Source: Escherichia coli (lineage in GTDB: Bacteria; Pseudomonadota; Gammaproteobacteria; Enterobacterales; Enterobacteriaceae). From it: a stretch of 64,000 bases of DNA. The stretch lies in the NCBI RefSeq assembly GCF_003018255.1, contig NZ_CP027440.1; one strand, 5' to 3'. The translations under genes were made by a program, and so were the position numbers. This document shows positions 2,228-64,000 of this stretch, in pieces. The notes under the pieces were generated by a model. The model did no database searches. It was not told the DNA's origin and was given only the letters and a program-made list of their open reading frames with translations. Positions within the stretch are counted from its first letter, which is position 1. Every line of letters begins with the position of its first letter.

Positions 2228-3742
2228 TCAGGCAACTGCCTGGCTGACTTTAGGCATCGCAAGGCTCAGTGCCTGACGCTCATCTGCCTGCTCGTGTAAC
2301 AATTCACCGGCGATTTCGCCTTCCCGCATCACCACAATCCGGTCGGCAACGCCGAGGACTTCAGGTAAGTCGCTGGAGGCAAACAGCACCGCCACACCCT
2401 GCGCCGCCAGCGCATAAATTACGTTATATATTTCGTGCTTAGCACCAACATCAATGCCGCGCGTAGGTTCATCCAGCAAAATGACCTTCATCTCTTCCGA
2501 TAACCAGCGGCCCAGAATGGCTTTTTGCTGATTTCCGCCTGAGAGATTCATGATCAGTTGATCAGCGCCCGGCGTTTTGATGTTGAGCGAACGAATGTGG
2601 TGATCGGCATTGTTTTCTTCCCAACCGTTGTTGATTACACAACCGCCGAGCACATGTGTACGTCTGGCACTGATGTTGATATTGTCGCGAACGGAGTGCA
2701 CGGGAATAATGCCTTCCGCTTTGCGATCTTCCGGGCAGAGCATCATGCCTGCGGCAATGGCGTGGCTCGGTTTACGAATATCGATCGGCTGTTGGTCGAT
2801 ATAAACCTGACCGGCGGTGATTTGCGTCCCGCCAAACATGCCTTTCATTAATTCGCTACGCCCTGCCCCGACCAGACCAAACAGACCGACAATTTCACCA
2901 CTGCGAACCGCCAGACTTATTGGCGTACGTACGCCTGGTGCTTTCACAGCATCAAGACGCAGCCGCTCCTCGCCATAACTACGCGGTTGCCAGCCGTAGA
3001 TATCGCCAATGTCTCGCCCGACCATCGCCTGCACCAGTGCGTCGTGGTCAACCTGCTGCATATCGGTAAAGGTTTTGACATAACGCCCATCTTTAAAGAC
3101 GGTGATGGCATCGCTGAGGGCAAATATTTCTTCCATACGGTGAGAAACGTATAAGATCACCCGCCCCTCTTTTCGCAGTTCACGAATAACGCGGAAAAGA
3201 TTGTCGATTTCGCGGGCAGAGAGGGAGCTGGTTGGCTCATCAAAGGCGATAATTTTGGCGTTACGCGCCAGCGCTTTGGCGATTTCAACCATCTGCCACT
3301 GACCAATGGAGAGATATTTCAGCGGCGTGTCCGGGTCAATATCCATACCAAGATGTTTAAGTTGTAAACCCGCCTCATAATTCAGCAATGAGCGATTCAC
3401 AATGCCGCCTTTATGCGGCAGCTGGCCGAGATAGATGTTTTCCGCGACGGTCATTTCCGGCACGAGATGCAGTTCCTGGTAAATAATCGCCACCCCCGCG
3501 TTAAGTGCTGCGGTCGTGTCGGAAAAGGACATTTCCTGCCCATTAATCACTACAGAACCCGTGGTTGGCGCATAGTTGCCGCTGAGGATTTTTAAGAGAG
3601 TTGATTTTCCTGCGCCATTTTCACCCATCAACGCATGAACCTGACCGGCATAGCAATCAAAACTAATATCCGTCAGCGCCTTAACGCCGGGAAACGTTTT
3701 ACCGATGCCGCGAAATGAGAGATACGGGGTAGACTGTTGCAT
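2228..3742 (-). CDS. araG: L-arabinose ABC transporter ATP-binding protein AraG
   Basis: ORF 2228..3787. Two ABC cassettes (Walker [10 protein letters not shown] and LSGGNQQK signature). Start trimmed to [17 protein letters not shown] (504 aa). Confidence 0.92.
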
Positions 3743-3811
3743 AACGTCTCCGTGAATCACTGGTCGTTCACACCCCCTCTGCATCATGCAGAGGGGAATT
3801 TTTCCGGCAAA

Positions 3812-4801
3812 TTACTTACCGCCTAAACCTTTTTTCTCCAGTTCTTCTTTAAAGTTGTCACGCGTGATCAATACCACGTCGGTAACTTCGGTAAATTTTG
3901 GCGGTTCAACGTCTTTTGCTACCCAGTTGTAAAGCATTTCGCTGGATTTATAGCCATGTACGTCCGGGCTTGGCAGCAGGGAACCGTAGAAGCCGGTTGC
4001 CTGTGCCTTAGACAGTTCGCTCACCGCATCCACACCGTTAATACCGATACCGATGATATCGGCCGCTTTAAAGCCCTGACCTTCCGTCGCGCGTACGCCG
4101 CCAAGTACGGTGCTGTCGTTCATACCGACGATCAGCCAATGTTTAACTTCCGGATGTTGAACCAGCATTGAGTTGGCAGCGTCAAATGCCCCCGGGATGT
4201 CGTTAGATTTGGTAGGTACCTGATAAATTTGTTTTTCCGGGAATCCTGCAGCTTTCAGCGCATCCATAGACCCCGTAGTACGGCGACGAGCCGTATCCAG
4301 TTCGTTGGCGGTAATCGCCATCACCGCGCTTTCTTTGACATCCCAGCCACGTTTCTGCATCTCTTTATACAGTTCCTGGCCCTGACGTTCGCCAATTTTG
4401 GTCGCTGCCATCATCACCAGCGGAACGGTATCCATTGGCTTGCCTTTGGCGTTAACAAACTGGTCATCCACGGCAATGACTTTCATATCGTAGCCACGCG
4501 CTTTCGCCACGATGGCAGAGCCGAGTTTCGGGTCCGGAGTACAAATAACGAAACCTTTTGCGCCACTGGCAGCCAGGCTGTCGATCGCGTTCAATGTTTT
4601 TTCGCCATCCGGCACGGCAATCTTAATAACTTCAAACCCTAAATCCTTCCCAGCTTTATCGGCAAACTTCCATTCGGTCTGGAACCACGGCTCTTCCGGT
4701 TGCTTCACCAGGAAACCGAGCTTCAGGTTCTCCGCCATAGCGGATTGTGACATAACGGCTGCCAGACCAATGGCTGCCAGGGCTTTAGTAAATTTGTGCA
4801 T
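3812..4801 (-). CDS. araF: L-arabinose-binding periplasmic protein AraF
   Basis: ORF 3812..4852. Start trimmed to MHKFTKALAAIGLAAVMSQSAMA signal peptide followed by ENLKLGFLVKQPEEPWFQTEWKFADKAG. Confidence 0.92.
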   Translation of the reverse strand: MHKFTKALAAIGLAAVMSQSAMAENLKLGFLVKQPEEPWFQTEWKFADKAGKDLGFEVIKIAVPDGEKTLNAIDSLAASGAKGFVICTPDPKLGSAIVAKARGYDMKVIAVDDQFVNAKGKPMDTVPLVMMAATKIGERQGQELYKEMQKRGWDVKESAVMAITANELDTARRRTTGSMDALKAAGFPEKQIYQVPTKSNDIPGAFDAANSMLVQHPEVKHWLIVGMNDSTVLGGVRATEGQGFKAADIIGIGINGVDAVSELSKAQATGFYGSLLPSPDVHGYKSSEMLYNWVAKDVEPPKFTEVTDVVLITRDNFKEELEKKGLGGK

Positions 4802-22775: not shown

Positions 22776-24182
22776 ATGGCAAGTATTTCATCGCTGGGAG
22801 TCGGGTCAGGTCTGGATTTAAGTTCAATCCTTGATAGCCTCACCGCCGCGCAAAAAGCGACGCTAACCCCTATTTCAAATCAGCAATCGTCGTTTACCGC
22901 TAAACTTAGCGCCTACGGTACGCTGAAAAGCGCGCTGACGACTTTCCAGACCGCCAATACTGCATTGTCTAAAGCCGATCTTTTTTCCGCCACCAGCACT
23001 ACCAGCAGCACCACCGCGTTCAGTGCCACCACTGCGGGTAACGCCATCGCCGGGAAATACACCATCAGCGTCACCCATCTGGCGCAGGCGCAAACCCTGA
23101 CCACGCGCACCACCAGAGACGATACGAAAACGGCGATCGCCACCAGCGACAGTAAACTCATCATTCAACAAGGCGGCGACAAAGATCCGATTACCATTGA
23201 TATCAGCGCGGCTAACTCATCGTTAAGCGGGATCCGTGATGCTATCAACAACGCAAAAGCGGGCGTAAGCGCAAGCATCATTAACGTGGGTAACGGTGAA
23301 TATCGTCTGTCAGTCACATCAAATGACACCGGCCTTGATAATGCGATGACACTCTCGGTCAGCGGTGATGATGCGCTACAAAGTTTTATGGGCTATGACG
23401 CCAGTGCCAGCAGCAACGGCATGGAGGTCTCGGTCGCCGCCCAGAATGCGCAGCTGACGGTCAACAACGTCGCCATTGAGAACAGCAGCAACACCATCAG
23501 CGACGCGCTGGAAAACATCACCCTGAACCTGAACGATGTCACCACGGGCAACCAGACGCTAACCATCACTCAGGACACCTCCAAAGCGCAAACGGCGATT
23601 AAAGACTGGGTGAATGCCTATAACTCGCTAATAGATACCTTCAGCAGCCTGACCAAATACACCGCCGTAGATGCGGGAGCTGATAGCCAGAGTTCTAGCA
23701 ATGGCGCACTGCTCGGCGACTCCACGTTGCGGACGATTCAGACGCAGTTGAAATCGATGCTGAGTAATACCGTTAGTTCTTCCAACTATAAAACGTTGGC
23801 GCAGATTGGTATCACGACCGATCCCAGCGATGGCAAACTGGAACTGGATGCCGACAAACTCACCGCTGCACTGAAAAAAGATGCCAGCGGCGTAGGTGCA
23901 TTGATTGTTGGCGATGGTAAAAAAACCGGCATCACGACCACCATCGGCAGCAACCTGACCAGTTGGCTTTCGACAACAGGCATTATTAAAGCCGCTACCG
24001 ATGGCGTTAGTAAGACCCTGAATAAGTTAACCAAAGACTACAACGCCGCCAGCGATCGCATTGATGCGCAGGTCGCGCGCTACAAAGAGCAATTTACCCA
24101 ACTGGACGTTTTAATGACCTCGTTAAACAGCACCAGCAGCTACTTAACGCAGCAGTTCGAAAACAACAGTAATTCCAAGTAA
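22776..24182 (+). CDS. fliD: flagellar filament capping protein FliD
   Basis: 468-aa ORF MASISSLGVGSGLDLSSILDSLTAAQKATLTPISNQQSSFTAKLSAYGTLKSAL. Confidence 0.95.
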   Translation: MASISSLGVGSGLDLSSILDSLTAAQKATLTPISNQQSSFTAKLSAYGTLKSALTTFQTANTALSKADLFSATSTTSSTTAFSATTAGNAIAGKYTISVTHLAQAQTLTTRTTRDDTKTAIATSDSKLIIQQGGDKDPITIDISAANSSLSGIRDAINNAKAGVSASIINVGNGEYRLSVTSNDTGLDNAMTLSVSGDDALQSFMGYDASASSNGMEVSVAAQNAQLTVNNVAIENSSNTISDALENITLNLNDVTTGNQTLTITQDTSKAQTAIKDWVNAYNSLIDTFSSLTKYTAVDAGADSQSSSNGALLGDSTLRTIQTQLKSMLSNTVSSSNYKTLAQIGITTDPSDGKLELDADKLTAALKKDASGVGALIVGDGKKTGITTTIGSNLTSWLSTTGIIKAATDGVSKTLNKLTKDYNAASDRIDAQVARYKEQFTQLDVLMTSLNSTSSYLTQQFENNSNSK

Positions 24183-51526: not shown

Positions 51527-52070
51527 GACTCAATCATTTTTTGAACAAATAGATAAATTTTGCGCAACGGCGGTGAATACAGGAAAATTCGATTTGAACG
51601 ATGTTATTTATCTTTGATTTCGGCTTTATTAATTCACTCAATCAATATATTGGCACTGATTACAATTATACCTTTTTATTTTTCTGTGTCATCATGCCTC
51701 CGTTATTAGCCTTTTATCGTCTTGTTTATATTTTTTTGGCCGGCATGATGCCGGCTTTTTTTATGCCTTCATTAATGTGCGCGAGATCACACCAGCCGTT
51801 TAGCACACAATCATTGATACTCCCTATCTTTTCGATCAACTCATAACATATTGATATACATCCATAATGTTCGTGAATATTTATATTCAGAATTCATAGC
51901 CACGAATTATATTAAATAGATTAGAAACATTTTGAAATCTTTTAAATACATTTGTTACATGTAATCTTTAAAATAAAATGAACTTCATAGAATAGTATCC
52001 AAATGTGCTTTTTTTGGATAACAGCACTTATTGATATATTCATGAAGATTATAATCACAAGGGAATACAT

Positions 52071-52172
52071 AATGAAAAGAAAAGTTCTGGCAATGCTGGT
52101 CCCGGCGTTATTAGTTGCTGGCGCAGCAAATGCGGCTGAAATTTATAATAAAAATGGGTTTTTTGTTGCCTG
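52071..52172 (+). pseudogene. yedS: 5' remnant of an OmpC-family porin gene (yedS-like), truncated after about 30 codons
   Basis: atgaaaagaaaagttctggcaatgctggtc... translates to [29 protein letters not shown] then FFVA-stop. This is the porin signal peptide plus mature N-terminus (AEIYNK[DN]G); homology ends where the prophage begins. Confidence 0.8.
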
Positions 52173-52244
52173 AAATTTATGCTCTTTAAAATCATGATGT
52201 TAGAAGCACTGTTTTTTAACGATGGCGACAAAATGGCGGCAGCG

Positions 52245-52463
52245 TCAAAGAGAGAGCGCCACCTGTCCTGATTTCATTGGATGCGGCTGAACCGGATTTG
52301 ACTCTTTTGGCGTTGCAATCGAACGAACAAAAGTTTCATGAGTAACAAAAGTATGGCTGCAGTTAATGTTCTGGCACTGGTTGTAACGCTCTTTGGTCAA
52401 TGAAGATACCTGAAAACTGCTGCGAGTATGGGCGGCACTTCCACACAGTGGGCAAATCATCAT
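52245..52463 (-). CDS. ogr: P2 Ogr-like zinc-finger late-gene transcription activator
   Basis: ORF 52245..52496; MICPLCGSAAHTRSSFQVSSLTKERYNQCQNINCSHTFVTHETF contains the CxxC...CxxxxC Ogr/Delta zinc finger. Confidence 0.85.
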   Translation of the reverse strand: MMICPLCGSAAHTRSSFQVSSLTKERYNQCQNINCSHTFVTHETFVRSIATPKESNPVQPHPMKSGQVALSL

Positions 52464-52553
52464 TTTTCGAGTTCTCCCCATTTTTGCTAAATTCACAATA
52501 ATGATACCGCATTATTCCATTTTGAAAACTTAAAAGTTCTCCATTGCGAAGAA

Positions 52554-53654
52554 TCATTCCATTTCGAAATCATCAATCTTCACTTCAAGCTCCAGACTGG
52601 TCGTAAAACCGTTATCCGGGCTGACAGTATGCGTCAGGGTGGTAATAGTCCATTCCGCATCATCTATCGGCTGTTTAAAGCCACTGACTTTCACTGGCAT
52701 TTCCGTGTAGAGATCTGCCCGCCCTTCCGCCAGTTGTAGCGAGAATGACGCAACGCCGCGTTGCAGGCGTTCCCACTGCATTTTCGCCGCTCGTTCGGCG
52801 TTGCTCCGGTTGGCATAAGTGCGATTAAGTACCAGCACGTTTTCATCCGTACCCACCAGGTAATCGCCCTGCTTCGCTTCCGGCTCTTTCTTCTGCTTCT
52901 TAGTTCTGCGCTTACGCTTCACCGTGGTGCTTTCTTTCTTCGCGGGTTCGCGGGTATGCAACCAGCTGGCAATTACGCCCGTGTAAGCTCCGCGATCTGC
53001 CAGGGTAAAGCGGTGACTGTCGCCGTCCTTACGTGTGATAGTGATAACCGGTAGTGGTTTACCACTGGCGCTTTTACCCTGCCCCTGCCTGATGAATAAC
53101 AGATTGCCATTTTTCACCGACGCAATAGCACCGTACTGGCGCGCCAGCCGCATCAGAAAACTGCCGTCACTCTCATTGGTCTGGTCTATATGTTCCACGG
53201 GTTTATCTGACAGGTCTTTACCCAATGCCATCTTCAGTTTGTGCCGCGCAGCTATTTCCTTCACCACTTCCCCAACGGTGGTCTTGTGCCACGACTTTTC
53301 ACGGCGGGTATTCAGTGTTTCACGAAAATCAGCACTTCGCGCCCGGATAGTCAGGCGGTCCGGTGCGCCAGTGTGTTCAATCTCGTCCACTGTGAATGCC
53401 CCTTTCGGGAAAAGCGGCTGCCCCTTCCAGCCTAGCGCCAGCGTAATGACCGCACCACGGCGCGGCAGCGCTATTTTTCCATCGGCGTCATCCAGGTCCA
53501 GATCAAGCTGGTCCGCTTCAAAGCCCCGGTTATCCGTCAGCGTCAGACTCATCAGGCGGTTATCCAGCACAGTGGTGATATCCCTGCCCTCAATACTGAT
53601 ACTGAATGCCGGAGTTTTGTTGCCTTTGTTAAGCAGTTCAGAGCTGAAATTCAC
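52554..53654 (-). CDS. P2 gpD-like tail protein (late control gene D)
   Basis: 366-aa ORF MNFSSELLNKGNKTPAFSISIEGRDITTVLDNRLMSLTLTDNRGFEADQLDLDLDDADG..., gpD family; position between ogr and U. Confidence 0.85.
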   Translation of the reverse strand: MNFSSELLNKGNKTPAFSISIEGRDITTVLDNRLMSLTLTDNRGFEADQLDLDLDDADGKIALPRRGAVITLALGWKGQPLFPKGAFTVDEIEHTGAPDRLTIRARSADFRETLNTRREKSWHKTTVGEVVKEIAARHKLKMALGKDLSDKPVEHIDQTNESDGSFLMRLARQYGAIASVKNGNLLFIRQGQGKSASGKPLPVITITRKDGDSHRFTLADRGAYTGVIASWLHTREPAKKESTTVKRKRRTKKQKKEPEAKQGDYLVGTDENVLVLNRTYANRSNAERAAKMQWERLQRGVASFSLQLAEGRADLYTEMPVKVSGFKQPIDDAEWTITTLTHTVSPDNGFTTSLELEVKIDDFEME

Positions 53655-54136
53655 GACAGAAGCCCTCCCACCGTTTTACTGATATCGCTTAAGGCAGATG
53701 TTGCCGTTCCCTGCAGATTATTCAGCTGCGCACTGAGATCACCGAACATATCGGACAGGGATTCATCCACCCGTTTGAGCGACAGGGTGAACTCAATCCG
53801 GCGCGGCATACCGTTGCGGAAAAACTCCGTTTTAGTCTGATTCAGTCCCTCAATCACATACATGCCGTAAATCGTGCCGCTGCCTTCAATCAGAGGCCAT
53901 GCTTTCCCCTGTTCTGCCATCTGCTCAAGTGCCAGCAACGACAGCCTGCCGCCTGTTATCTCCGGCATAAGAACACCGGAAAGCGTCAGCATGTCGTTGT
54001 CTGGTCCCAGAAACTGCGTGGACGGACGACGATTTACCCGGCTGTTAACCGCATGTCGCCAGCTGCGTTGATACTGCAGTTCCTGATACGGCACGGTGCG
54101 CAGCATAAACACGTACAATCCCAGCACCATCATCAT
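53651..54136 (-). CDS. P2 gpU-like tail protein
   Basis: 161-aa ORF; position between D and the tape-measure gene; 4-bp overlaps on both sides. Confidence 0.8.
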   Translation of the reverse strand: MMMVLGLYVFMLRTVPYQELQYQRSWRHAVNSRVNRRPSTQFLGPDNDMLTLSGVLMPEITGGRLSLLALEQMAEQGKAWPLIEGSGTIYGMYVIEGLNQTKTEFFRNGMPRRIEFTLSLKRVDESLSDMFGDLSAQLNNLQGTATSALSDISKTVGGLLS

Positions 54137-57100
54137 GCGTCGTATCCCCCCTGATCGCTGTAGTTACTCCTGGCTTTTGCCTTCAGCCTGCGTTCACGTT
54201 CATCAAGCTGGCGTGCCACCTCCCGCGCAATATCCTGCGCACTTTGTCCTGGCTGCGTCTGAATGATGATCTGCGTCGGTGCCTCAATCCGTTGAACGAG
54301 CGGCACAGTGGCTGCGCGACTCACAATTGCTTCTCCACCTTTCGCGGGAAGTGCCAAAGGGTGCAACGGTGGAAGCTCTGCTGGCGCGGCAGCAACGCCC
54401 ATCATTCCGGCAACAACGGCAGCCAGTGCAGCTGTATTTCTCCGGCTGGTCACATTTGCCGGGCCGTTAACAATTTCCGGCCCGTTTTCACCGACGATGC
54501 CAAACTGCCCGCGCGGGATATACCCGCCGCTGTCATACATCCCCGCAAAGCCATATCCCCATGATGGAAAACCACCCGATGGCATCATCACTTTACCGTC
54601 TGCATTCACCGTCGCAGGTTGCTGACGCGTCACGCTTTCCGGCAGTTTTGCCTTTGCGGCCTCTTTACTGACAATGCCGAGCTTCTCCAGCAACCAGGAA
54701 ACGCCGGATTTCAGGGAGTCCAGCGGATGCATGACCATATTCAGCCCTTCCACCAGTGCCTCCCCGAATCGCCGCCCCATTGCCGCTGCGCTCTGCAGTT
54801 CGGCAGAGGTCGACTTAACGGGCGTCAGCAGATCAGTAAACCAGCCCCACAGCGCCTGCACTTTGTCGCCAATCCACTGGAACACGGGCTTAAGCGGTTC
54901 GAACGCTGCACTGATGGGACCTGCCGCCGCTTTGAATCCTTCCACCACGCCACCGAGAAATGCGGTGATGGGTTGCCAGTATTTCCAGACAACCAGCGCC
55001 ACGCCCGCCAGTGCAGTAACCACAAGACCTATCGGACTGAGCAGAGCACCTAACAGACCAGATATGGCATACAGGGCAACGCGCAGCATCGCCAGTGGAC
55101 CAGATGCCAGTACTCGCAGCACCGTGCCTGCGGCGGCCAGTCCACCGCGCAGTACCGACAGAGGATTCATAAACATCACAGCAACAGCACGTAAACCGGA
55201 TAATCCAGACCGCAAAAGTGCAACCGGCGCACCTGCTACAGTTTTCAGGACATTTCCCGTCAGTGATGCCGTGCGGCGCAAAGACGACAACGGCGCAGTA
55301 AGTAAACCTGCGGCGTTGCCCGATGAAGCAAGCCCGCGTCGCAGCAGTGCCAGTGGTGCGCCAGCCAGCCAGGACAACGCGCTGCTGGTTCGAGTTACTG
55401 CTGCCGTAACGAAAGATAACGTTTTGATACCCAGCACAGAGAATCCCAGACGGATCACTGCCAGCGGCCCCAGCACTGCAGCCAGCGCCACCGCTAAGGT
55501 GCCGAGGCCGACGGTAACCGCAGCCACAACAGCCGATGCTTTCATCAGTGTGCCTGTCAGTTCCGGGTTAGCTTCCACCCAGCGACGCAACGCCCCCGTG
55601 ACGCTTTTCACCGTGTACAGAATATCCATCAGCGGCTGGCGCAGCGTTTCGCCCAGGCTGCTGAAGGTGTTCTGCGCTCCGGTTTTGACCAGCAACCACT
55701 GCGCAGAAAGTGAATCCTTGTTAATGTCGGATTCTTTCTGCATGGAGCCGAGCGCATCATTGCCCGCTGTCAGTTTTAACTGACGCTGCAGTTCCGGCAG
55801 GTTGTTTGCCAGTTTCGCCGCGTCATCGCCAAACTCTTTACCAAACAACATAGTCATGGCAGACAGGCGCTTGTCCTGCGGCAGCGCGTTTACCTTCTCC
55901 AGCACGCGCTGGATGGTTCCCATCGCATCCTTCGTCATCTGCTTTTCAATCACTTCAGGATTGAGTTTCAGCAAATTCATCCCTTCAAAGAAACTTTTGC
56001 TTTGCATGGTGGCAATGGACAATTCACGCACCATCGCGTTTGCTGCACTGGCTGCAACCTCTGGCGCAGCGCCCAGTGTCAGGAAGGTGGAACCCAGCGC
56101 CGCCGCTTTACGATAATCCAGACGGTCAGCCACACCGCCCAGACGTTGCATCACATCAATGATGTCTGCCCCTTTCGACATGGCGTTATCATCCAGATAG
56201 TTCAGCGCATCACCGAGCTGTTCAATATTGCGGGTGGGGATTTTGTAGAGCTGGGCGATTTTCCCCAGACTTTCTGACAGTTCATCCGCTGGCAGCTCAA
56301 AGGCTGTTGCCGCCTTTGCTGCCGTACTGGCGAAGGCCAGCAGGTCACGTTTCTGATCTTCCCAACTGTCGTCAGGGTTTGCGACGTTCATGCGCGCACC
56401 ACCTTCAACCAGTGCAGCGAAATCCACCGCACCGTTTTCCATCGGCAACTGTTCGCTGGCAGCCTTGATGGCATCCTGCATTTCATAAAAACGTGCAGTG
56501 CGGTTGCCATTATCGTCACGCAGACCATTGACCTGCTTTGCCACACCTTTCATGGCATCTTCCATGCTGGTATAGCTTTTTACTGCCGCCATCACTGGTG
56601 CGCCCATTGCCAGCCCTGCAGCCGTGGTGGTGGCTCCGGCACCTGCAATACGATCACGCACCTCCAGCGAACGGGCATAACTGGCACGCGCTGCATTCAT
56701 CCTGCGCTGAGCTTCCCCCAGTCGCTTCAGCCGCGCCTCCTGTTTCGAAAGTTCCTGGTTATAACGTGATGTTTCACGGGCTAAACGGGCAGTTGCTCCC
56801 GCATCGTCTTTCGCAGAAATTCCCGCCCGGTACAGTTCAGCACGCACAAGCGCCGTCTGCTGCTGCAGCTTTTTCTGGCGTTCTTCCAGGCGCTGAACAG
56901 CCAGCCGTTGACGGCCCAGAGCAACAACCTGACGTTGCGAAGGCGGCCCCATCGCTCCCAGTTCCTGACTGAGCAAATTTGCACGCTGGCGGGCATAGTT
57001 CAGCCTGTCGCCTAATTTCTGATTTTCTGCCTGCAGCTTTCGGAAGCTGTCCAGACTGCTCCCGGCCTGATCAAGCTGCTTTATTGCATCGCGGGATTTT

Positions 57101-57210
57101 TTGACAGCAGCAGCCAGTTCTCTTGAACTGGCCTGCGCAGATCGAAATGGGCGGGTGAGCTTGTCAACCGCATTAAGAATGACCTGCAGACGCAGGTTGT
57201 TATCACTCAT
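54133..57210 (-). CDS. tail tape-measure protein (P2 gpT-like)
   Basis: 1025-aa ORF with Ala/Leu-rich coiled-coil N-terminal half and Gly/Ala-rich segments, typical of tape-measure proteins. Confidence 0.88.
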   Translation of the reverse strand: MSDNNLRLQVILNAVDKLTRPFRSAQASSRELAAAVKKSRDAIKQLDQAGSSLDSFRKLQAENQKLGDRLNYARQRANLLSQELGAMGPPSQRQVVALGRQRLAVQRLEERQKKLQQQTALVRAELYRAGISAKDDAGATARLARETSRYNQELSKQEARLKRLGEAQRRMNAARASYARSLEVRDRIAGAGATTTAAGLAMGAPVMAAVKSYTSMEDAMKGVAKQVNGLRDDNGNRTARFYEMQDAIKAASEQLPMENGAVDFAALVEGGARMNVANPDDSWEDQKRDLLAFASTAAKAATAFELPADELSESLGKIAQLYKIPTRNIEQLGDALNYLDDNAMSKGADIIDVMQRLGGVADRLDYRKAAALGSTFLTLGAAPEVAASAANAMVRELSIATMQSKSFFEGMNLLKLNPEVIEKQMTKDAMGTIQRVLEKVNALPQDKRLSAMTMLFGKEFGDDAAKLANNLPELQRQLKLTAGNDALGSMQKESDINKDSLSAQWLLVKTGAQNTFSSLGETLRQPLMDILYTVKSVTGALRRWVEANPELTGTLMKASAVVAAVTVGLGTLAVALAAVLGPLAVIRLGFSVLGIKTLSFVTAAVTRTSSALSWLAGAPLALLRRGLASSGNAAGLLTAPLSSLRRTASLTGNVLKTVAGAPVALLRSGLSGLRAVAVMFMNPLSVLRGGLAAAGTVLRVLASGPLAMLRVALYAISGLLGALLSPIGLVVTALAGVALVVWKYWQPITAFLGGVVEGFKAAAGPISAAFEPLKPVFQWIGDKVQALWGWFTDLLTPVKSTSAELQSAAAMGRRFGEALVEGLNMVMHPLDSLKSGVSWLLEKLGIVSKEAAKAKLPESVTRQQPATVNADGKVMMPSGGFPSWGYGFAGMYDSGGYIPRGQFGIVGENGPEIVNGPANVTSRRNTAALAAVVAGMMGVAAAPAELPPLHPLALPAKGGEAIVSRAATVPLVQRIEAPTQIIIQTQPGQSAQDIAREVARQLDERERRLKAKARSNYSDQGGYDA

Positions 57211-57336
57211 CGTTGGCCCCGCTTCTCTGAATCGCTTTATACCGCCATTCCAGCACTTCGGTCAGCGGCATAACGTCAGTAACGGATGGCGGCCAGTGAA
57301 AAATGGTGGCGATATCTGCCACCAGATCGTCAACCG

Positions 57337-57639
57337 TCAGGCTGTCGGTAAACCGGCAAGCACCGACTTCTTCAACAAAAAAGTGACAACCTCAACCGAC
57401 ATGGCAGTGAGATCTGCCGGGTCCATCTCTGCAATTTCCTGTGCAGTCAGTGCCGGACTGGAGATGCGGGGGATCACGATCATCATCGCGTTTACATCCA
57501 TATCCATAATGGCCTGCAGGCGTGTACCGCGCAGCGCACCGGACTGCGGTTTACGCAGCACAATTTCGGTGATTTCTGTTTTACCGCGCTTGATGGGGGT
57601 ATCCAGTTGAATGGTCTTTTCAGTCTGCTTATCGCTCAT
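57337..57639 (-). CDS. P2 gpE-like tail assembly chaperone (0-frame product; E+E' made by -1 frameshift extends to about 57203)
   Basis: 100-aa ORF MSDKQTEKTIQLDTPIKRGKTEITEIVLRKPQSGALRGTRLQAIMDMD...; a slippery site lies near its 3' end. Confidence 0.8.
   Translation of the reverse strand: MSDKQTEKTIQLDTPIKRGKTEITEIVLRKPQSGALRGTRLQAIMDMDVNAMMIVIPRISSPALTAQEIAEMDPADLTAMSVEVVTFLLKKSVLAGLPTA
57376..57382 (-). promoter_or_regulatory. programmed -1 ribosomal frameshift slippery heptamer T-TTT-TTG (E to E+E')
   Basis: Minus strand reads ACT TTT TTG in the E frame. The -1 frame stays open for about 59 further codons, stopping at TGA overlapping the first codons of the tape-measure gene. Confidence 0.7.
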
Positions 57640-57693
57640 TTTGCTGTCCTGTCAATTGGGTTCTGGCGCGGTATCCCGCGCCGTTCAGATATA

Positions 57694-58209
57694 TCAGAGG
57701 CCGAGGGCGTTGCGGTGCGCTTCCATCAGGTCCACACCGTCCACAATTTCCACCATGTTGATAAGGTCCACTTCATAGAGCACCTCACCATTGATGGTCA
57801 GCTTCGCGTAGCTGTTGGTACTGGTCACTTTGGTGGTGTTGCTTTCGCCCGTCTTCCACTCGCCGGAATCCACTTCTTTGTGACGTCCACGCACGACAAG
57901 CTCCACAGCCTGCACTTCCCCGGTATCGTCACGCTGAATAGAGCCGGTAAAGCGCAGCTGGATGCCATCCACCGTGGCTTTACCCATCTGTTTAAACAGC
58001 AGCAATTCAGTACCACCAATGGAAAATTCTGTGTCCAGCGCACTGTCATCAAGCCCCAGATCCACATCCACCGCACCCGGCATTCCGCCGCCGCGATACT
58101 TCTCATATTTGCGGGTGAATTTCGGCAGCGTCAGCGACTCAACGATCCCCTGCCAGTTGTTCCCGTCGTTAAACAGGTTCAGGTGTTTTAATTTGCGTGG
58201 TAAAGCCAT
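57694..58209 (-). CDS. tail tube protein (P2 FII-like)
   Basis: 171-aa ORF MALPRKLKHLNLFNDGNNWQGIVESLTLPKFTRKYEKYRGGGMPGAVDVDLGLDDSALD. Confidence 0.88.
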   Translation of the reverse strand: MALPRKLKHLNLFNDGNNWQGIVESLTLPKFTRKYEKYRGGGMPGAVDVDLGLDDSALDTEFSIGGTELLLFKQMGKATVDGIQLRFTGSIQRDDTGEVQAVELVVRGRHKEVDSGEWKTGESNTTKVTSTNSYAKLTINGEVLYEVDLINMVEIVDGVDLMEAHRNALGL

Positions 58210-58218
58210 GTTGTCCCC

Positions 58219-59391
58219 TTACGCGCTGACCTGGCTGGCGAAATTCACCAGGTACTGATCGGTGATGCGCTGACGCAGCATCAGGTTTTCAAGTGGCGGC
58301 ACTGGCGTGTAGTCGTAGTCGATGGTGAGTTTTCCGGCTTTCAGCGTGTCTTTGTCGTTCACCGACTCATCCAGCCAGCAATCACCACCAATGAGATAGC
58401 CCTGACTGACCAGGCTGCGCATTTTGGCGCGGATACCTTCGATAATGTCGCGGGCCAGCGACGGGTTAAGCGGTTTATCCACCGCCCACATGTGTGCTTC
58501 TGCCATCGTGTCCATCAGCACCTGCGCCGTGCGGGTGTAGTTTTCGAAGGCAAAGAGCGGGTCATCACTCAGGCAGCGGGAACCCCAGAAGCGGAAACCG
58601 TCTTTACGCACAAGCGTGGTGACGTCGTTCTGGTTCAGCAGACCTGCATCGGTTGCCGGGTCCTGCAGATCCCAGAACACATCTGCAGAAATTCCGGTGA
58701 CACCGTTCACGCCCACGTTGGACAGGCTTTTGTGCCATCCGGTCTGCTCGTCAATTTTGGCGCGCAGACCAAGCGCACGGGCGGTGGCATATGCCGTTGC
58801 TTCGGCATTCAGCACCGTGTCCCAGCCAGTAAAGTCAGGCCAGATCAGCATCCCTTCGCGCTGGCTGAAGTTTTCGCGGTAAGTGATCGCCTCCTGCACT
58901 GTCTTGCAGCCATACGCTGACAGGTAAGCAAATCCACGCAGGCTTTGCGCCACGCTCAGCAACTCAGTAGCTACCGCCTTGGTGTCGTGGCCTGGCACGC
59001 CGAGAATGCGCGGTTTAACGCCGAGCTGTGACTGGGCAGATAACAGGGCTTTCATACCTGTTTTTTTACCTTCAGCAGTCACTGCGCCGATGATATTGGT
59101 CGTGGTTTCGTCTTCCGTTTCACCCTGCGGCACACGCACAACAATGGTCACGGGTTTTGCCTGGTCAGCGATGGCATCCAGCGAACGGGCCAGAGTACCG
59201 GACTCACCCGCTTTACCGCTGGCAGTCAGCACATCAGTGATCAGCACGGGTTTATTAAGAGGAAACATTTTTGCATCGGCATCATCGCCCGTGCAGACCA
59301 TACCCACGATGGCGGTGCTCACCGTGGTAATAGATCGGGTGCCTTCGTTGACTTCAACAACGCGCACCCCGTGGTGGTAATCCTGAGCCAT
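58219..59391 (-). CDS. contractile tail sheath protein (P2 FI-like)
   Basis: 390-aa [56 protein letters not shown]. Confidence 0.9.
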
Positions 59392-59533
59392 AGTGGCGAA
59401 CCTCCTGATTGGATTAGGCTTCGCCCTATGTTGAAGTGATTGTGCCTGACAAACAGCTAAGCGCAGTTGTGTCGTTATTCACACAAAATAACGGTATTTG
59501 TCTGCTTGCAGGGATAATCAACATAATGCTGAT

Positions 59534-60100
59534 TCAGGGGGATTCATTGATCTTATTTGCCGGAAATTTTCTATAAATGGTAGAAACGCCTACATCAAAA
59601 ATCAGTGCAATACGCTGTCTTGATTCTCCGGCCTCGAGTAAACGCCCAATCTGTGCCCACTGTTCGGTGGTCAACTTAGGACGGCGTCCACCTACTCTGC
59701 CTTTGGCACGAGCTGCAGCCAGCCCTGCCCTGGTACGTTCAACTATCAGTTCGCGTTCCATTTCAGCCAGGGCACCCATGACATGAAAAAAGAAACGGCC
59801 CATTGGGGTACTGGTATCAATACTGTCAGTCAGGCTTCTGAAATTCACACCACGCTGGCGCAACTCTTCTATCAGCGTAACAAGATGCCGCATACTGCGC
59901 CCCAACCTGTCCAGCTTCCAGACAACCAGCGTGTCTCCTGCCGATAGTGTCCTGAGTAGTTTTTTCAGCCCCGGTCTGTCGGACTTAGTGCCACTGATTT
60001 TGTCCTCAAAAATCCGCTCACATCCCGCGCAGTTCAGTGCATTACGTTGCAAATCGGTGTTCTGGTCATTTGTTGACACGCGTACATAGCCAATAAGCAT
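59534..60100 (-). CDS. pin: serine-recombinase DNA invertase (Pin/Gin/Cin/Hin family)
   Basis: ORF 59534..60106; MLIGYVRVSTNDQNTDLQRNAL... with catalytic Ser in the YVRVST motif and C-terminal HTH (GVSTIYRKF); very close to e14 Pin. Confidence 0.9.
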   Translation of the reverse strand: MLIGYVRVSTNDQNTDLQRNALNCAGCERIFEDKISGTKSDRPGLKKLLRTLSAGDTLVVWKLDRLGRSMRHLVTLIEELRQRGVNFRSLTDSIDTSTPMGRFFFHVMGALAEMERELIVERTRAGLAAARAKGRVGGRRPKLTTEQWAQIGRLLEAGESRQRIALIFDVGVSTIYRKFPANKINESP

Positions 60101-60155
60101 GATCATCCCCCTGAATAAAAACCGGAGATGATGCCAGTTAGCTGTTACCTCTGCA

Positions 60156-60181
60156 TTTTCTTAAACGTTGGTTTGGGAGAA
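60156..60181. repeat. invertase crossover site, left (pix/gix/cix-like)
   Basis: ttttcttaaacgttggtttgggagaa; inverted repeat of the site at 62124..62149. Confidence 0.75.
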
Positions 60182-60664
60182 GGTTCAGCATTACCTGTTG
60201 GTGCGCCTGTTCCGTGGCCTTCAGAGACACCTCCAACAGGCTGGCTGAAATGCAACGGGGCGGCTTTTTCTGCTGAAGAATACCCGGAACTGGCAAAGGC
60301 TTACCCGACAAATAAATTGCCTGATTTACGAGGTGAATTTATTCGTGGCTGGGATGATGAACGTGGTGTGGATAGTGGGCGAACTCTGCTTTCAGCGCAA
60401 GGAGATGCTATTCGAAACATTACTGGCGGTTTTGGTCAGTTGCGCGTAAACAGCGAAATTAATGCAATTGTCGATGTTCAAAGTGTGAGTGGGGCTTTTT
60501 ACGGAGGTACCTCAGTCCGGAATAACATCAATGTGTCTATGACATACGCTAATGACCGAAAAATCCGACAAGATGTTCACTTCTCGGCGGCAAATGTTGT
60601 TCCAACAGCAAATGAAAATCGTCCACGTAACATCGCCTTTAATTATATTGTGAGGGCCGCATGA
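60156..60664 (+). CDS. alternative tail-fibre C-terminal segment (Sv'-like), silent in this orientation and lacking its own start
   Basis: The frame is open through the crossover site (..LGE-GSALPVGAPVPWPSETPPTGWLKCNGAAFSAEEYPELAKAYPTNKLPDLRGEFIRGWDDERG...), so inversion would fuse it to the H constant part at the conserved GLGE junction. The track's ATG at 60128 is probably not a real start. Confidence 0.7.
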
Positions 60665-61265
60665 TGAATAAAGCTGTATTAAATAGCAAACTCATTGCCA
60701 TAAAAGCGGGAGACATTATCATTTATAATTATGATGGTGAAACGCGGGAATATATTTCTACATCAACTGAATATCTCGCTGTCGGCGTCGGTATCCGGCA
60801 TGTTCTTGTTTGGATGCACCAGGTACACATAAAGCTGGTTATGCAATTTGTCGTTCTGTAGATTTAAACTCATGGGAATATGTGCCAGACCATCGCGGTG
60901 AAGTTGTCTATAACACCGAAACGGGAGAATCAAAAGAAATCACAGCTCCGGGTGATTACCCTGAAAATACAACCACTATCGCCCCATTAACGCCATACGA
61001 TAAATGGGATGGCGAGAAATGGGTGACGGATACCGAGGCACAGCATAGCGCCGCAGTAGATGCAGCGGAAGCACAGCGCCAGTCGCTGATTGATACTGCA
61101 ATGGCTTCCATCAGTCTGATTCAACTGAAATTGCATGCCGGACGTAAACTGACGCAGGCAGAAACAACCCGGCTTAACGCTGTGCTGGATTACATTGACA
61201 CGGTGACGGCAACAGATACCAGCACCGCGCCGGATGTCATCTGGCCTGAACTACCGGAGGCGTAG
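60661..61265 (+). pseudogene. tail-fibre assembly protein gene (Tfa', partner of Sv') with an apparent 1-bp frameshift
   Basis: N-terminal part in frame 1 (60661..60861, MMNKAVLNSKLIAIKAGDIIIYNYDGETREYISTSTEYLAVGVGI) and C-terminal part in another frame (60810..61265, ...DAPGTHKAGYAICRSV...TDTSTAPDVIWPELPEA). The frames join if one C is added in ggtatc-cggca around 60795. Confidence 0.6.
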
Positions 61266-61680
61266 GCCATTCAATATCTGGAGCACTGGAGGTATCAACC
61301 AGTTCCAGTGCGTCCAGATAATCCAGCCATAAATTATATTGTTCCAGTTCGTCACCTTTCAGACGACCAATAGCAGCTTTGCCAGGCCACTGATGGGTGT
61401 TGATGTAGGTATTGGCTTCTGAAACCAAAGATATTTTTTTCATTTCAGCCATCAACACCTCATCCTCTTTTGAAGGCGGTGGGGAATTAATCCATATTGG
61501 CCGTCCTGAACTGTCAGCGCCAATTTCTTTCCCTTCTGGATGCAGCCCAAGAAATTGCTCATATCTTTCTCTGGTAATTTCAATAACATCATCAGGAAGC
61601 GTTCCCGCATCCTCATATTCTGGAAACAATTCTTGCAGATAAAAACTTTTACTTCCGGGTGAAAAGAATACTGAGTTCAT
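61237..61680 (-). CDS. tail-fibre assembly protein (Tfa / P2 gpG-like), active orientation
   Basis: 147-aa ORF directly downstream of H; C-terminus ...DTSSAPDIEWPTPPVVQAR resembles the Tfa family C-terminal motif. Confidence 0.8.
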   Translation of the reverse strand: MNSVFFSPGSKSFYLQELFPEYEDAGTLPDDVIEITRERYEQFLGLHPEGKEIGADSSGRPIWINSPPPSKEDEVLMAEMKKISLVSEANTYINTHQWPGKAAIGRLKGDELEQYNLWLDYLDALELVDTSSAPDIEWPTPPVVQAR

Positions 61681-61682
61681 TC

Positions 61683-63185
61683 TTACCGTCCAATGATTAA
61701 GGCTGAGACGCTGGTATCTGAAGGAAAGGCTGCATTCAGTGGTTTGTCGACTTTGAATACAATCGTATTATTCCCCCTGACAGCGGCAAAAGAACAAACC
61801 GCAGTCGCGTATGAACCTGTAATATTACTGGATACACCACCATAAGCTGTTGTTGATACCAGAGGGATAACGCCCAGCACCTTATTAGGAAATACAAAGG
61901 GCAATGTGGCTGTGGCAATATAAGACTTATTAGAACCTGTGATGGAATAAGCATTATCAGTCATTCCATTCATCGCCACTGGGCCGCTTATACTTACAGT
62001 AACCATCTGAATGATTAGCCCGTCAGGTTGACGAATCACAAAATTTCCATTGCCACCAGTAACCGTCCAGAAAGACATATCAGGGATTTGGTTTTCCCCG
62101 TTGCCCACATTCCGTTTTGCCGCTTCTCCCAAACCAAGGTATGTGAGAAGACCAGCTACATCCTTTCCACTCAAATTGGTAAGCGTATTGTCCAGCGGTT
62201 GTTTACCTGCCAGCGCATTAAGCATTGTCGTGGCAAAGTTCGGATCATTCCCCAGTGCCGCCGCCAGTTCGTTCAGTGTATCCAGTGCAGCAGGTGCAGA
62301 ACCCACCATTCCTGCAATCGCCGATTTCACAAAAGCCGTAGTGGCAATCTGTGTATTGTTGACCGACTGCGCCGCCGTGGGGGCTGTTGGCGTTCCGGTG
62401 AGTGCCGGACTCGACAACGGTGCTTTTAGTGCCAGCGCATTGTTAATGGTGGTACTGAAATTCGGATCATTGTTAATGGCTGCGGCTATTTCTTTCAGCG
62501 TGTCCAGCGTGGCTGGCGCACCATTAATAAGGGCCGTCAGTGCCGCCTGTACAAACGCAGTGGTCGCAACCTGCGTGGTATTATTCCCCGCCGCTGGCGT
62601 TGGCGCTTTGGGGGTTCCGGTAAATGTCGGGCTGGCTTTTGGCGCGTACTGTGAATGCGGGTCCGGTGCGGCAAGATGTTTTGCCATCTGATCATCCGCG
62701 TACACCTTCAGCTCCAGTGCCTTGTCATCCACATACTTGCGGGTTGCCAGCACTACAGCAGGGTCGATTTTCAGGGTGATATTGTCCGTGCTGCTGGTAA
62801 TCAGCACCATGCGCACGGTCTGAGTGCGCCCGCTACCTTCAGCCAGTTGCGGCTTATAGCTTTCCGGGCAGTTGCCCACGGCAATCAATGCCCCGGACTC
62901 ATCAAACAAGCCCACTTCACGTATCCACCAACCGCCCTCGTTTTCAGGGATCACCTGTTCGGCAATAATCTGGCTGCTGTTCTGCGGGTCGATATAAAGC
63001 ATATTCAGCGCAGCCCGGCGTTTCTCATTTACCAGTGCCGTCTGCTTTGCGTCCGGCGTTGGCAATACTCCACCGCCATCGCCCACCGCCATATGGGTAA
63101 TTTTTAGCGGCACACCGAGCGCGGCGGCGCTGGCAAGTTTCGCCGCGCCAATATCCGTCAGCAGGGTATAAAATTTTGTGCTCAT
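61683..63185 (-). CDS. tail fibre protein (P2 gpH-like); C-terminal part (61683..62123) lies inside the invertible segment
   Basis: 500-aa ORF; N-terminus MSTKFYTLLTDIGAAKLASAAALGVPLKITHMAVGDGGG... resembles P2 gpH; repeated motif TAFV...ALDTLNELAAALGNDPNF. Confidence 0.88.
   Translation of the reverse strand: MSTKFYTLLTDIGAAKLASAAALGVPLKITHMAVGDGGGVLPTPDAKQTALVNEKRRAALNMLYIDPQNSSQIIAEQVIPENEGGWWIREVGLFDESGALIAVGNCPESYKPQLAEGSGRTQTVRMVLITSSTDNITLKIDPAVVLATRKYVDDKALELKVYADDQMAKHLAAPDPHSQYAPKASPTFTGTPKAPTPAAGNNTTQVATTAFVQAALTALINGAPATLDTLKEIAAAINNDPNFSTTINNALALKAPLSSPALTGTPTAPTAAQSVNNTQIATTAFVKSAIAGMVGSAPAALDTLNELAAALGNDPNFATTMLNALAGKQPLDNTLTNLSGKDVAGLLTYLGLGEAAKRNVGNGENQIPDMSFWTVTGGNGNFVIRQPDGLIIQMVTVSISGPVAMNGMTDNAYSITGSNKSYIATATLPFVFPNKVLGVIPLVSTTAYGGVSSNITGSYATAVCSFAAVRGNNTIVFKVDKPLNAAFPSDTSVSALIIGR
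62124..62149. repeat. invertase crossover site, right (pix/gix/cix-like)
   Basis: ttctcccaaaccaaggtatgtgagaa; lies inside the H coding sequence at codons ~346-354 (LTYLGLGEA). Confidence 0.75.
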
Positions 63186-63787
63186 GGATTCACTCTCATT
63201 GTGTCAATAACATGGACCGCCCCGCCTTCATGCGCGGTGCCACCGGAAATAATCGTTTCGTTGATATACGGATAGATCGTGATTTCTTCGCCAAGATAGC
63301 TGGCGGCTCCCACCCAATGCGGGCCGCTGGTCTGCAGATTGATGGACATGCCGATCATGTGGCGGCTACATGGTTTGGCATCGCTTATCAGTCGCTCAAG
63401 TTCCAGATAGGTATCTTCAGTGATGCCCTGGTCCTGCACGCCGATATCCAGGCGAAACGTGCCCGGTGTTTCTCCGGTCTGCCACCACTCAATAATGCGG
63501 ATCAGGAATCCGAACGGTTCCACCGCCCGCCGCACGGCACTGGTGGTTCCTTTATGCTGATGAATATAAAAAGCATCCTTCACTACCTGGCGTTTGACGC
63601 TTTCTGTCCAGCCCTCGTCCCAGCGATCCACAGAGAACGCCCAGGCGAGATAAGGCAGGAAGCTGACCGGACAGGTAGCCGGATTCCACAAGTCACGCAG
63701 CGGCACCTGCAAATCAGAAATCCCGCTACAGGTTTGCGCCAGTCGGCGCTCCAGTGAAGTTGAACCCGGTGGCAGCAGACTATTCAT
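63182..63787 (-). CDS. baseplate protein (P2 gpI-like)
   Basis: 201-aa ORF with RDLWNPATCPVSFLPYLAWAFSVDRWDE... matching my memory of P2 gpI (RELWNPDTCPANLLPWLAWAFSVDRWDE). Confidence 0.85.
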   Translation of the reverse strand: MNSLLPPGSTSLERRLAQTCSGISDLQVPLRDLWNPATCPVSFLPYLAWAFSVDRWDEGWTESVKRQVVKDAFYIHQHKGTTSAVRRAVEPFGFLIRIIEWWQTGETPGTFRLDIGVQDQGITEDTYLELERLISDAKPCSRHMIGMSINLQTSGPHWVGAASYLGEEITIYPYINETIISGGTAHEGGAVHVIDTMRVNP

Positions 63788-64000
63788 CCGTTCCTCCGTT
63801 GGTTACGCTCCACTGCGTACATGATGCCGCCTGTGTTTTGTTCAGGACCACATCCGCCAGCGGAGAAGCCAGTTCCACACGTTGAACACCCTCAACATGC
63901 AGAGCAGCAAAGATGGCGCTACGGCGAATATCCCGACCAAGCCTCGTCTGGCTGGCAATGTACTTCTGCAGACTGGCTTTTGCCGCTGCCATTACCGGCT
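63780..64000 (-). CDS. baseplate assembly protein (P2 gpJ-like), C-terminal part only (5' end beyond window)
   Basis: ORF fragment ...LQKYIASQTRLGRDIRRSAIFAALHVEGVQRVELASPLADVVLNKTQAASCTQWSVTNGGTDE; overlaps the gpI start. Confidence 0.75.
   Translation of the reverse strand, partial: PVMAAAKASLQKYIASQTRLGRDIRRSAIFAALHVEGVQRVELASPLADVVLNKTQAASCTQWSVTNGGTDE

Follow-up and report, generated by a model that had tools for sequence, protein, structure and literature searches.

What becomes of a porin gene when a prophage boundary falls within its first codons? The question is raised by a stretch of 64,000 nt of Escherichia coli contig NZ_CP027440.1 (hereafter the window, always meaning the whole stretch), in which the gene yedS gives way within codon 29 to the ogr-side end of a prophage. 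An initial annotation had read this place as the end of a P2-like prophage inserted within the first ~30 codons of a yedS-like porin gene. The comparisons reported here leave us highly confident that a prophage of the 186/Fels-2 type was inserted by its integrase into a secondary bacterial attachment site (attB) in codon 29 of yedS, and that the porin was inactivated by this insertion.

The interruption of yedS

A survey of 5426 complete E. coli genomes with a 1.3-kb query spanning the site gave matches in 5052. In all but one genome these matches either end at 52157, within a full-length porin gene adjoining drpB, or start at 52154, in the ogr end of a prophage located elsewhere. The 5' sequence found in the window runs on into a full-length porin between drpB (yedR) and hchA in more than 5000 complete genomes, which disposes of an independent short gene, the possibility that the initial annotation had set against its own reading. 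The abrupt change from a porin N-terminus to unrelated sequence was likewise borne out, as the host homology of more than 5000 genomes extends no further than 52157, and from 52154-52158 onward the window matches the ends of P2-family prophages. Alignment to the intact yedS of strain E302, our reference for the break, gave the exact breakpoint that had been sought, between 52157 and 52158 in codon 29 (GG/C; the slash marks the junction throughout). After ...GAAATTTATAATAAAAATGG the E302 gene goes on with CAATAAAGTTGAT and the window with GTTTTTTGTTGCCTGAAATTTATGC; the last host bases read ...AAAAATGG, and prophage DNA begins at 52158. The junction is a precise discontinuity with respect to thousands of intact copies and not a chance resemblance. 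It comprises the following features:

52072..52157, plus strand: the 5' part of yedS that is host DNA, with the start codon, a signal peptide of 21 residues, the first seven mature residues and codon 29 up to its second base; continuous with the intact genes
52072..52173, plus strand: hybrid stub open reading frame (ORF) of 33 codons plus stop, made up of 28 codons of yedS, one for Gly that straddles the junction, and FFVA with the stop codon from the phage
52152..52157, no strand: crossover hexamer AAATGG; the ogr end reads ...AAAAATGG/GTTTTTT in the window, the int end ...CATAAATGG/CAATAAAG in contigs L012 and L022

In translation the stub starts with the ATG at 52072, runs through 29 residues and FFVA, and stops at 52171-52173; the earlier coordinates were right to within a base or two, the start having been placed at 52071. 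With the break in codon 29, the placement of an attR-type junction (ogr side, in the P2 convention) within the first ~30 codons holds as well.

The window ends ~23 kb short of the far prophage end, which was approached by walking outward with exact-protein look-ups. Contig L008 (GCA_031303755.3) corresponds to window positions 51684-64000 at 99.99% identity, with no mismatch and one gap, and contigs L010 and L012 (GCA_029307295.1), whose overlaps with L008 and between themselves are 100% identical, extend as far as the integrase. In this window lineage the junction after int reads ...CATAAATGG/CAATAAAG (L012 and L022), in longer form ...CCCATTTACATAAATGG/CAATAAAGTTGAG... and ...CTAACCCATTTACATAAATGG/CAATAAAGTTGAGCTATACGGC..., and yedS resumes there from codon 29 onward. 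The missing 3' part of the porin, expected past int, is thus present in the window lineage, and the complete genome OkiPb01675 has the same arrangement with the yedS remainder beyond int. Coordinate arithmetic across the window-lineage assemblies gives a prophage length of ~34.6 kb. The 3' fragment comprises 323 codons with an open frame up to the stop codon; hchA and hprS come next. Joined to the 86 host bases of the window, the fragment yields an uninterrupted OmpC-family porin of 352 amino acids (aa). Its alignments to the NCBIfam models of OmpF, PhoE and OmpC span the full length (388-411 bits, each below the equivalog cut-off), and its identity to the 371-aa allele of E302 is 65%. The yedS-like identity given to the stub agrees with this rejoined gene, full-length with its signal peptide and lying between drpB (yedR)/rseX and hchA. 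The exchange was reciprocal, with no yedS bases lost or gained, and since the rejoined frame is uninterrupted, yedS was intact when it was hit and has not decayed since.

The porin was expected to be inactive unless the phage rebuilt its frame, and neither end does so. At the int end the frame ahead of the 3' fragment reads TAA CCC ATT TAC ATA AAT GGC, with a TAA in frame five codons ahead of the junction; the fragment has its first in-frame ATG at Met37 of the precursor, which leaves a product without signal peptide. At the ogr end the yedS frame stops after four phage codons. Integration that preserves its target, the phage rebuilding the interrupted gene as at tRNA sites, is not what we found. 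Because of the in-frame TAA and the missing signal peptide, the porin is not rebuilt, and it is inactivated, its 5' end encoding the signal peptide and 12 residues.

AAATGG is the only sequence duplicated at both prophage ends, and because it stands at both, precise excision would restore yedS. Regulated precise excision might then return the porin whenever it is needed, a form of active lysogeny. The duplicated hexamer permits exact restoration, the 3' part of yedS is still an intact frame, and int, a gene in the position of apl, cI and cII are all present in a prophage that looks complete. We nevertheless regard such a regulated switch, with excision uncoupled from lysis, as very unlikely: the insertion is rare, a recent insertion explains the intact 3' part equally well, and yedS is dispensable and a pseudogene in K-12.

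The gene was assigned to yedS by its position between drpB/rseX and hchA-hprS-hprR, which corresponds to the gene order of K-12. Its upstream neighbors vsr, dcm, yedJ and drpB (yedR) all lie on the minus strand. Between drpB and yedS we found rseX (51673-51762, plus strand; Rfam RF01401, 92.5 bits), the gene of an Hfq-binding small RNA, with its terminator hairpin at 51738-51756; rseX is intact and unaffected by the insertion. The yedS gene itself is highly polymorphic, yet its first 30 codons are nearly invariant (alleles at L002 4675-5790, L001 36679-37671 and L012 ~3050-3990).

The phage and its primary attachment site

The prophage DNA that follows the junction comprises these features:

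52158..64000, no strand: in-window part of the prophage (ogr, D, U, T, E/E', tube, sheath, invertase, invertible fibre segment, fibre, baseplate I), running on to int beyond the window
52158..52244, no strand: P' arm of the phage attachment site (attP), from the crossover to the ogr stop codon, contiguous with the int-side arm in Klebsiella phage KP12
52220..52241, plus strand: tandem pair of arm-type sites for the integrase, CGATGGCGACA and AAATGGCGGCA, matching the 186-type arm consensus (reverse strand)
52245..52463, minus strand: 72-aa late-gene activator, a zinc-finger protein of the Ogr/Delta (186 B) family (Pfam PF04606, Ogr_Delta, on the identical L008 gene; RefSeq annotation of a homologue)
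52554..53654, minus strand: gpD-type tail protein ('late control D'; PF05954)

The stop codon of the ogr-like gene lies 71 bp past the stop of the stub ORF, in keeping with the ~70 bp first given. Against the NCBIfam model PRK09678 this gene scored 98.5 bits, under the cut-off of 116 bits. The ORFs from 52245 to 57210 follow the late gene order of P2-type phages, T-U-D and then the Ogr/Delta activator adjoining the attachment site, with gpU and the tape-measure gene lying beyond gpD; the Pfam families GPD, GpU, PhageMin_Tail and Ogr_Delta were found on the identical L008 genes, and the homologous prophage of OkiPb01675 is annotated alike in RefSeq. Outside the window, L012 carries Phage_CI_repr, Phage_CP76, Phage_186_Fil and Phage_integrase, that is, a 186-type lysis-lysogeny region with the integrase on the opposite side of the attachment site. 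The label P2-like therefore stands for the family and not for P2 itself: by its CI/CII/Fil genes and 186-type arm sites the phage is assigned to the 186/Fels-2-like branch. The prophage looks complete.

That attP lies between ogr and int, as had been supposed for P2, could be read directly in phage KP12, our free-phage reference, in which both prophage ends are contiguous between the integrase and OGR at 97.6% identity. In E. coli B the ogr end of the prophage matches the P' arm at 99.8% identity. A second arm pair, AAGTGGCGACA and AAGTGGCGGCA, matches the one in the window and lies on the int side, 99-121 bp from the crossover. Nilsson et al. 2011 give tgccGCCActt as the 186-type arm consensus in P2-like phages (PMC3448106). 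The yedS junctions have the marks of a tyrosine integrase: the ends are contiguous in a free phage, arm-type repeats stand on both sides, the break in the host sequence coincides exactly with the attP crossover, the remainder of the host gene is found at the far end, and a short duplication is present.

This int end was found in ~1070 complete E. coli genomes, and in every one of them its last bases are ...CATAAATGG. It is joined to rcdA in 1068 of the 5426 genomes (~20%), with the ogr end by ybjL, as in E. coli B. Lysogen junctions compared with the empty sites of K-12, EDL933 and others define a 27-bp core, ATGGGTTTTTTGTTGCCTGAAATTTAT, which consists of the 3' half and the T-tract of the ybjL terminator hairpin. 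The phage copy of this core is found in the window at:

52154..52180, no strand: phage copy of the primary-site core, ATGGGTTTTTTGTTGCCTGAAATTTAT, with the same sequence as the unoccupied ybjL/rcdA site in EDL933; the bases from 52158 onward are phage-derived

A duplicated core had been predicted near 52150..52175. The hexamer AAATGG at 52152-52157 is indeed duplicated, but there is no long core, and 52158-52180 belong to the phage copy just described. Empty primary sites share 23-27 of the 27 positions with the core; yedS, aligned in register, shares AAATGG and scattered bases, 12 of 27 by our own count from the aligned sequences, and does not resemble a primary attB. At the ybjL/rcdA site (e.g. 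L027-L030, L003 2940-3030) the phage end rebuilds the ybjL terminator hairpin on integration.

The yedS junction was present in just one of the 5426 genomes, OkiPb01675. Two further searches bear little on its rarity. No contig among public genomes matched the junction pattern CGTTTACATAAATGGCAAYAAA, a pattern blind to the window lineage, which reads CCCATTTACA and not CCCGTTTACA, and no metagenome contig matched the ogr-side junction. Contig L024 (GCA_021167355.1) carries a 4605-bp int-attP end with one mismatch to the window lineage (99.98%), sited at rcdA/ybjL. The same phage can therefore use both sites, and yedS is the secondary one; on these comparisons yedS is classed as a rare secondary attachment site of this phage.

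If the specificity of the integrase had shifted, yedS would be the primary site of this phage. In favor of such a shift, the yedS/hchA context is seen in 23 of 24 examined contigs that carry a 161-aa gene next to int (see below), and the window-lineage integrase (Int) is just 93% identical to that of OkiPb01675. Those 23 contigs, however, look clonal (L022 and L023 are 100% identical over 8.5 kb), both Int variants used yedS, attP keeps the full 27-bp core of the ybjL terminator (52154-52180), and the L024 segment, with one mismatch in 4605 bp, sits at rcdA/ybjL. A shifted specificity is on this evidence highly improbable.

A primary site already occupied was considered as the cause of yedS use and rejected for OkiPb01675, whose rcdA/ybjL site is empty. 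This empty attB (L026 ~23495-23500) has GTGG for ATGG at the left core edge, where the crossover maps; GTGG is common to OkiPb01675 and EC21Z-144, and ATGG is found in K-12, EDL933 and SMN013SH2. The GTGG allele may or may not be linked to secondary-site use in OkiPb01675.

Crossover position and site choice

In the mechanism that we propose, a 186/Fels-2-type prophage of the PhiECO1 integration type, carrying a type I-C retron, would have been inserted into yedS codon 29 by its own tyrosine integrase. Int would have driven an exchange between the attP crossover (...CATAAATGG/GTTTTTTG...) and yedS (...AAAAATGG/CAATAAAG...), which have only AAATGG in common there. The window holds the B-O-P' junction on the ogr side, with P-O-B', int and the yedS remainder following ~34.6 kb on, and precise excision mediated by Int and Apl would give back an intact yedS attB, ...AAAAATGGCAATAAAG..., and attP, ...CATAAATGGGTTTTTTG....

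Differences between host and phage at yedS confine the exchange in the window lineage to between -7 and +1 of the junction. The ogr end of OkiPb01675 reads AAAGATGG, and if its attB had the same sequence, the exchange there falls between -5 and +1. Judged from these alleles, strand exchange must have occurred within AAATGG or at the edges of the hexamer. In the prophage at the primary site of E. coli B, the ogr end has kept the alleles of the phage (GC..G..T) and the int end those of the host (AT..A..C), a split that puts the exchange left of core position 15. The overlap thus probably lies at or beside ATGG, the left core edge, although the precise cleavage positions can only be approximated from junctions of this kind. 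As no fully matched overlap of 6-8 bp fits both the primary and the yedS site, some heterology in the overlap appears to be tolerated.

Recombination without the integrase could also have brought prophage and yedS together, either as an illegitimate or short-homology event or by rearrangement of a prophage that formerly occupied the primary site. The crossover homology of just 6 bp and the presence of an 11-bp repeat, CTGAAATTTAT, on both sides of the junction speak for such an origin. Yet the breaks at the two ends fall precisely on the attP crossover point that served in 1068 lysogens at the primary site, the exchange was reciprocal without loss or gain of bases in yedS, and recombination at the 11-bp repeat would yield junctions unlike those observed. 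An integrase-free origin is barely credible in the light of these junctions, and catalysis by Int is the reading that we retain.

Several points nonetheless weigh against integrase-driven insertion at a secondary site. The window contains a single prophage junction, and the far end is known from near-identical public assemblies and not from the window's own record. The sequence shared by attP and yedS amounts to 6 bp (4 bp, ATGG, in OkiPb01675 if its attB read AAAGATGG), less than the fully matching 6-8-bp overlap that tyrosine integrases usually need. The yedS flanks agree with attP at 5 of 14 and 7 of 25 positions, and among 140 random AAATGG sites taken from ~170 kb of host DNA, 30% score as well; flanks no better than background do not account for the choice of site. 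The capacity of this prophage to excise or integrate is, moreover, predicted from its sequence.

Extrapolated from 140 sites in ~170 kb, AAATGG is expected at several thousand sites per E. coli genome; reuse of this particular one would imply some further recognition. Extended in-register similarity between yedS and attP was rejected as an explanation, being no better than at random AAATGG sites. An inverted-repeat model of the core (ACAWAA-N7-TTTTGT) and an alignment of yedS with the core in reverse orientation had been drawn by eye only and were dropped. One candidate element lies upstream of the crossover:

52136..52146, plus strand: copy of CTGAAATTTAT in the host gene yedS; the final 11 bp of the phage core, at 52170-52180, have the same sequence

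Only these two copies of CTGAAATTTAT are present in the window, against 0.06 expected. The yedS copy lies on the host side, 11-22 bp from the crossover, and 8 bp of it are shared in OkiPb01675. The repeat was rejected as an attachment-site duplication, since its host copy and its phage copy both lie at one end of the prophage, and crossing over at the repeat would lead to other junctions. As a displaced recognition element CTGAAATTTAT is suggestive and a candidate only, many word pairs being possible. A more far-reaching proposal is that codon 29 of yedS is a true, repeatedly used secondary attB, chosen independently of in-register identity to the core, by the displaced CTGAAATTTAT or another structural cue, and that the insertion acts as a reversible porin switch. 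We consider this unlikely; if true, it would mean a recognition rule of 186-type integrases that has gone unrecognised and an on/off switch of a carbapenem-permeable porin. A link between yedS and carbapenem entry is given in PMC4048246, which cites Warner et al. 2013.

One integration or two, and the wider setting

The crossover nucleotide is identical in OkiPb01675 and the window lineage despite different prophages and yedS alleles. On the 5' side the host sequences are 2.4% apart, the 3' alleles of yedS are different from the 12th base past the junction onward, and the int genes are 86% identical in nucleotides and 93% in protein. The window-lineage phage carries a 574-bp insert with the 161-aa gene, which is not found in the OkiPb01675 prophage, and the latter has a TIR-domain gene as cargo in place of the retron. 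The tail genes of the two prophages are 92-98% identical (98% over 8.2 kb). Independent, integrase-directed integrations at one nucleotide are the simpler reading of this pattern.

Alternatively, yedS was hit once in an ancestor and the site was never reused, both occurrences going back to descent or to horizontal transfer of the whole yedS::prophage segment. The identical junction nucleotide and the 98% identical tail-gene region of 8.2 kb fit such a history, as does the mosaic nature of P2-family prophages, which according to Nilsson et al. 2011 recombine readily (PMC3448106). A single event is harder to square with host flanks 2.4% apart, 3' alleles that differ from 12 bp past the junction, an int identity of 86% and the extra gene; for the allele to be replaced right up to the junction, recombination would have had to end within 12 bp, and only one of the 5426 genomes has the junction. 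We therefore hold a single ancestral integration to be unlikely and favor two separate insertions.

Several other features of the prophage were noted. An invertible tail-fibre segment of ~2 kb lies within 59534-62149, beside a resolvase-family invertase gene (59534-60106, minus strand) and bounded by 27-nt inverted repeats at 60156-60182 and 62123-62149. It holds the 3' end of the fibre gene plus alternative fibre and assembly genes. The segment is flipped between the otherwise 100% identical L008 and L010, giving a fibre of 500 or 514 aa, which indicates that the switch is active. Outside the window, in a cargo position between a DinI-like gene and the portal gene, the same prophage encodes a reverse transcriptase of 586 aa (L012 14497-16257; PADLOC RT-Toprim, retron type I-C, 718 bits). 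Relatives have other defence-like cargo at this position (GmrSD/HEPN, PDDEXK, DndB, and the TIR-domain gene of OkiPb01675). The 161-aa orphan gene (L012 4111-4596, minus strand; L022 4001-4486) is located between the int stop codon and the attP arm sites and had no match in Pfam, NCBIfam or PADLOC. E. coli B has a different small gene in its place, and the spot between int and attP looks like a second cargo position. A gene with a PAPS-reductase fold (L012 10001-11011), beside the phage dam methylase and conserved in many prophages of this type, gave weak PADLOC matches to SspD, BrxP and DndC (best E = 2e-23).

Among known systems, retronphage phiR67, related to 186, carries retron Ec67 with a reverse transcriptase of 586 aa, which the RT-Toprim type I-C enzyme found here by the portal gene may resemble. 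Secondary sites are familiar from P2 (locII, locH and others) and lambda, whose integrases have a preferred site and occasionally use sites partly identical to the core. The yedS insertion resembles these in its normal attP crossover and in short homology concentrated at one side of the overlap, and differs in integrase and core, in its unusually low identity and in lying within a coding region. Prophages that cause negative conversion, such as the phi13-type phages of S. aureus in hlb and phi10403S of Listeria in comK, likewise split an ORF that precise excision restores. Their intragenic site is, however, the primary one and commonly occupied, whereas yedS is a rare secondary site. Closest are the phages PhiECO1, PhiECO2, PhiECO3 and PhiSEN1 of the Fels-2 group with a 186-type regulatory region, which according to Nilsson et al. 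2011 (PMC3448106) share the CI/CII/Fil switch, the arm repeats and the gene order, in which ogr/B and int flank the attachment site. The same paper places PhiECO1-3 at ~0.9 Mb in HS and CFT073, unlike the present phage inside yedS. That locus fits the ybjL/rcdA site of the relatives of this phage, and the PhiECO1 core may equal the 27-bp core, going by map positions only.

Integration at secondary sites and gene disruption by prophages are textbook phenomena, and no concept is changed by this case. We found no mention of a prophage in yedS in the literature searched, and the insertion site does not seem to have been described. The value of the finding lies mainly in annotation and strain biology: yedS has been lost here by a prophage, as opposed to the point mutations of K-12. 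Taken as two events, the insertions form a natural data set that narrows to at most 6 bp the crossover of an integrase whose prophage is very common in E. coli. The ability of this integrase to work with very little homology is relevant to integrase tools and to the prediction of prophage sites.

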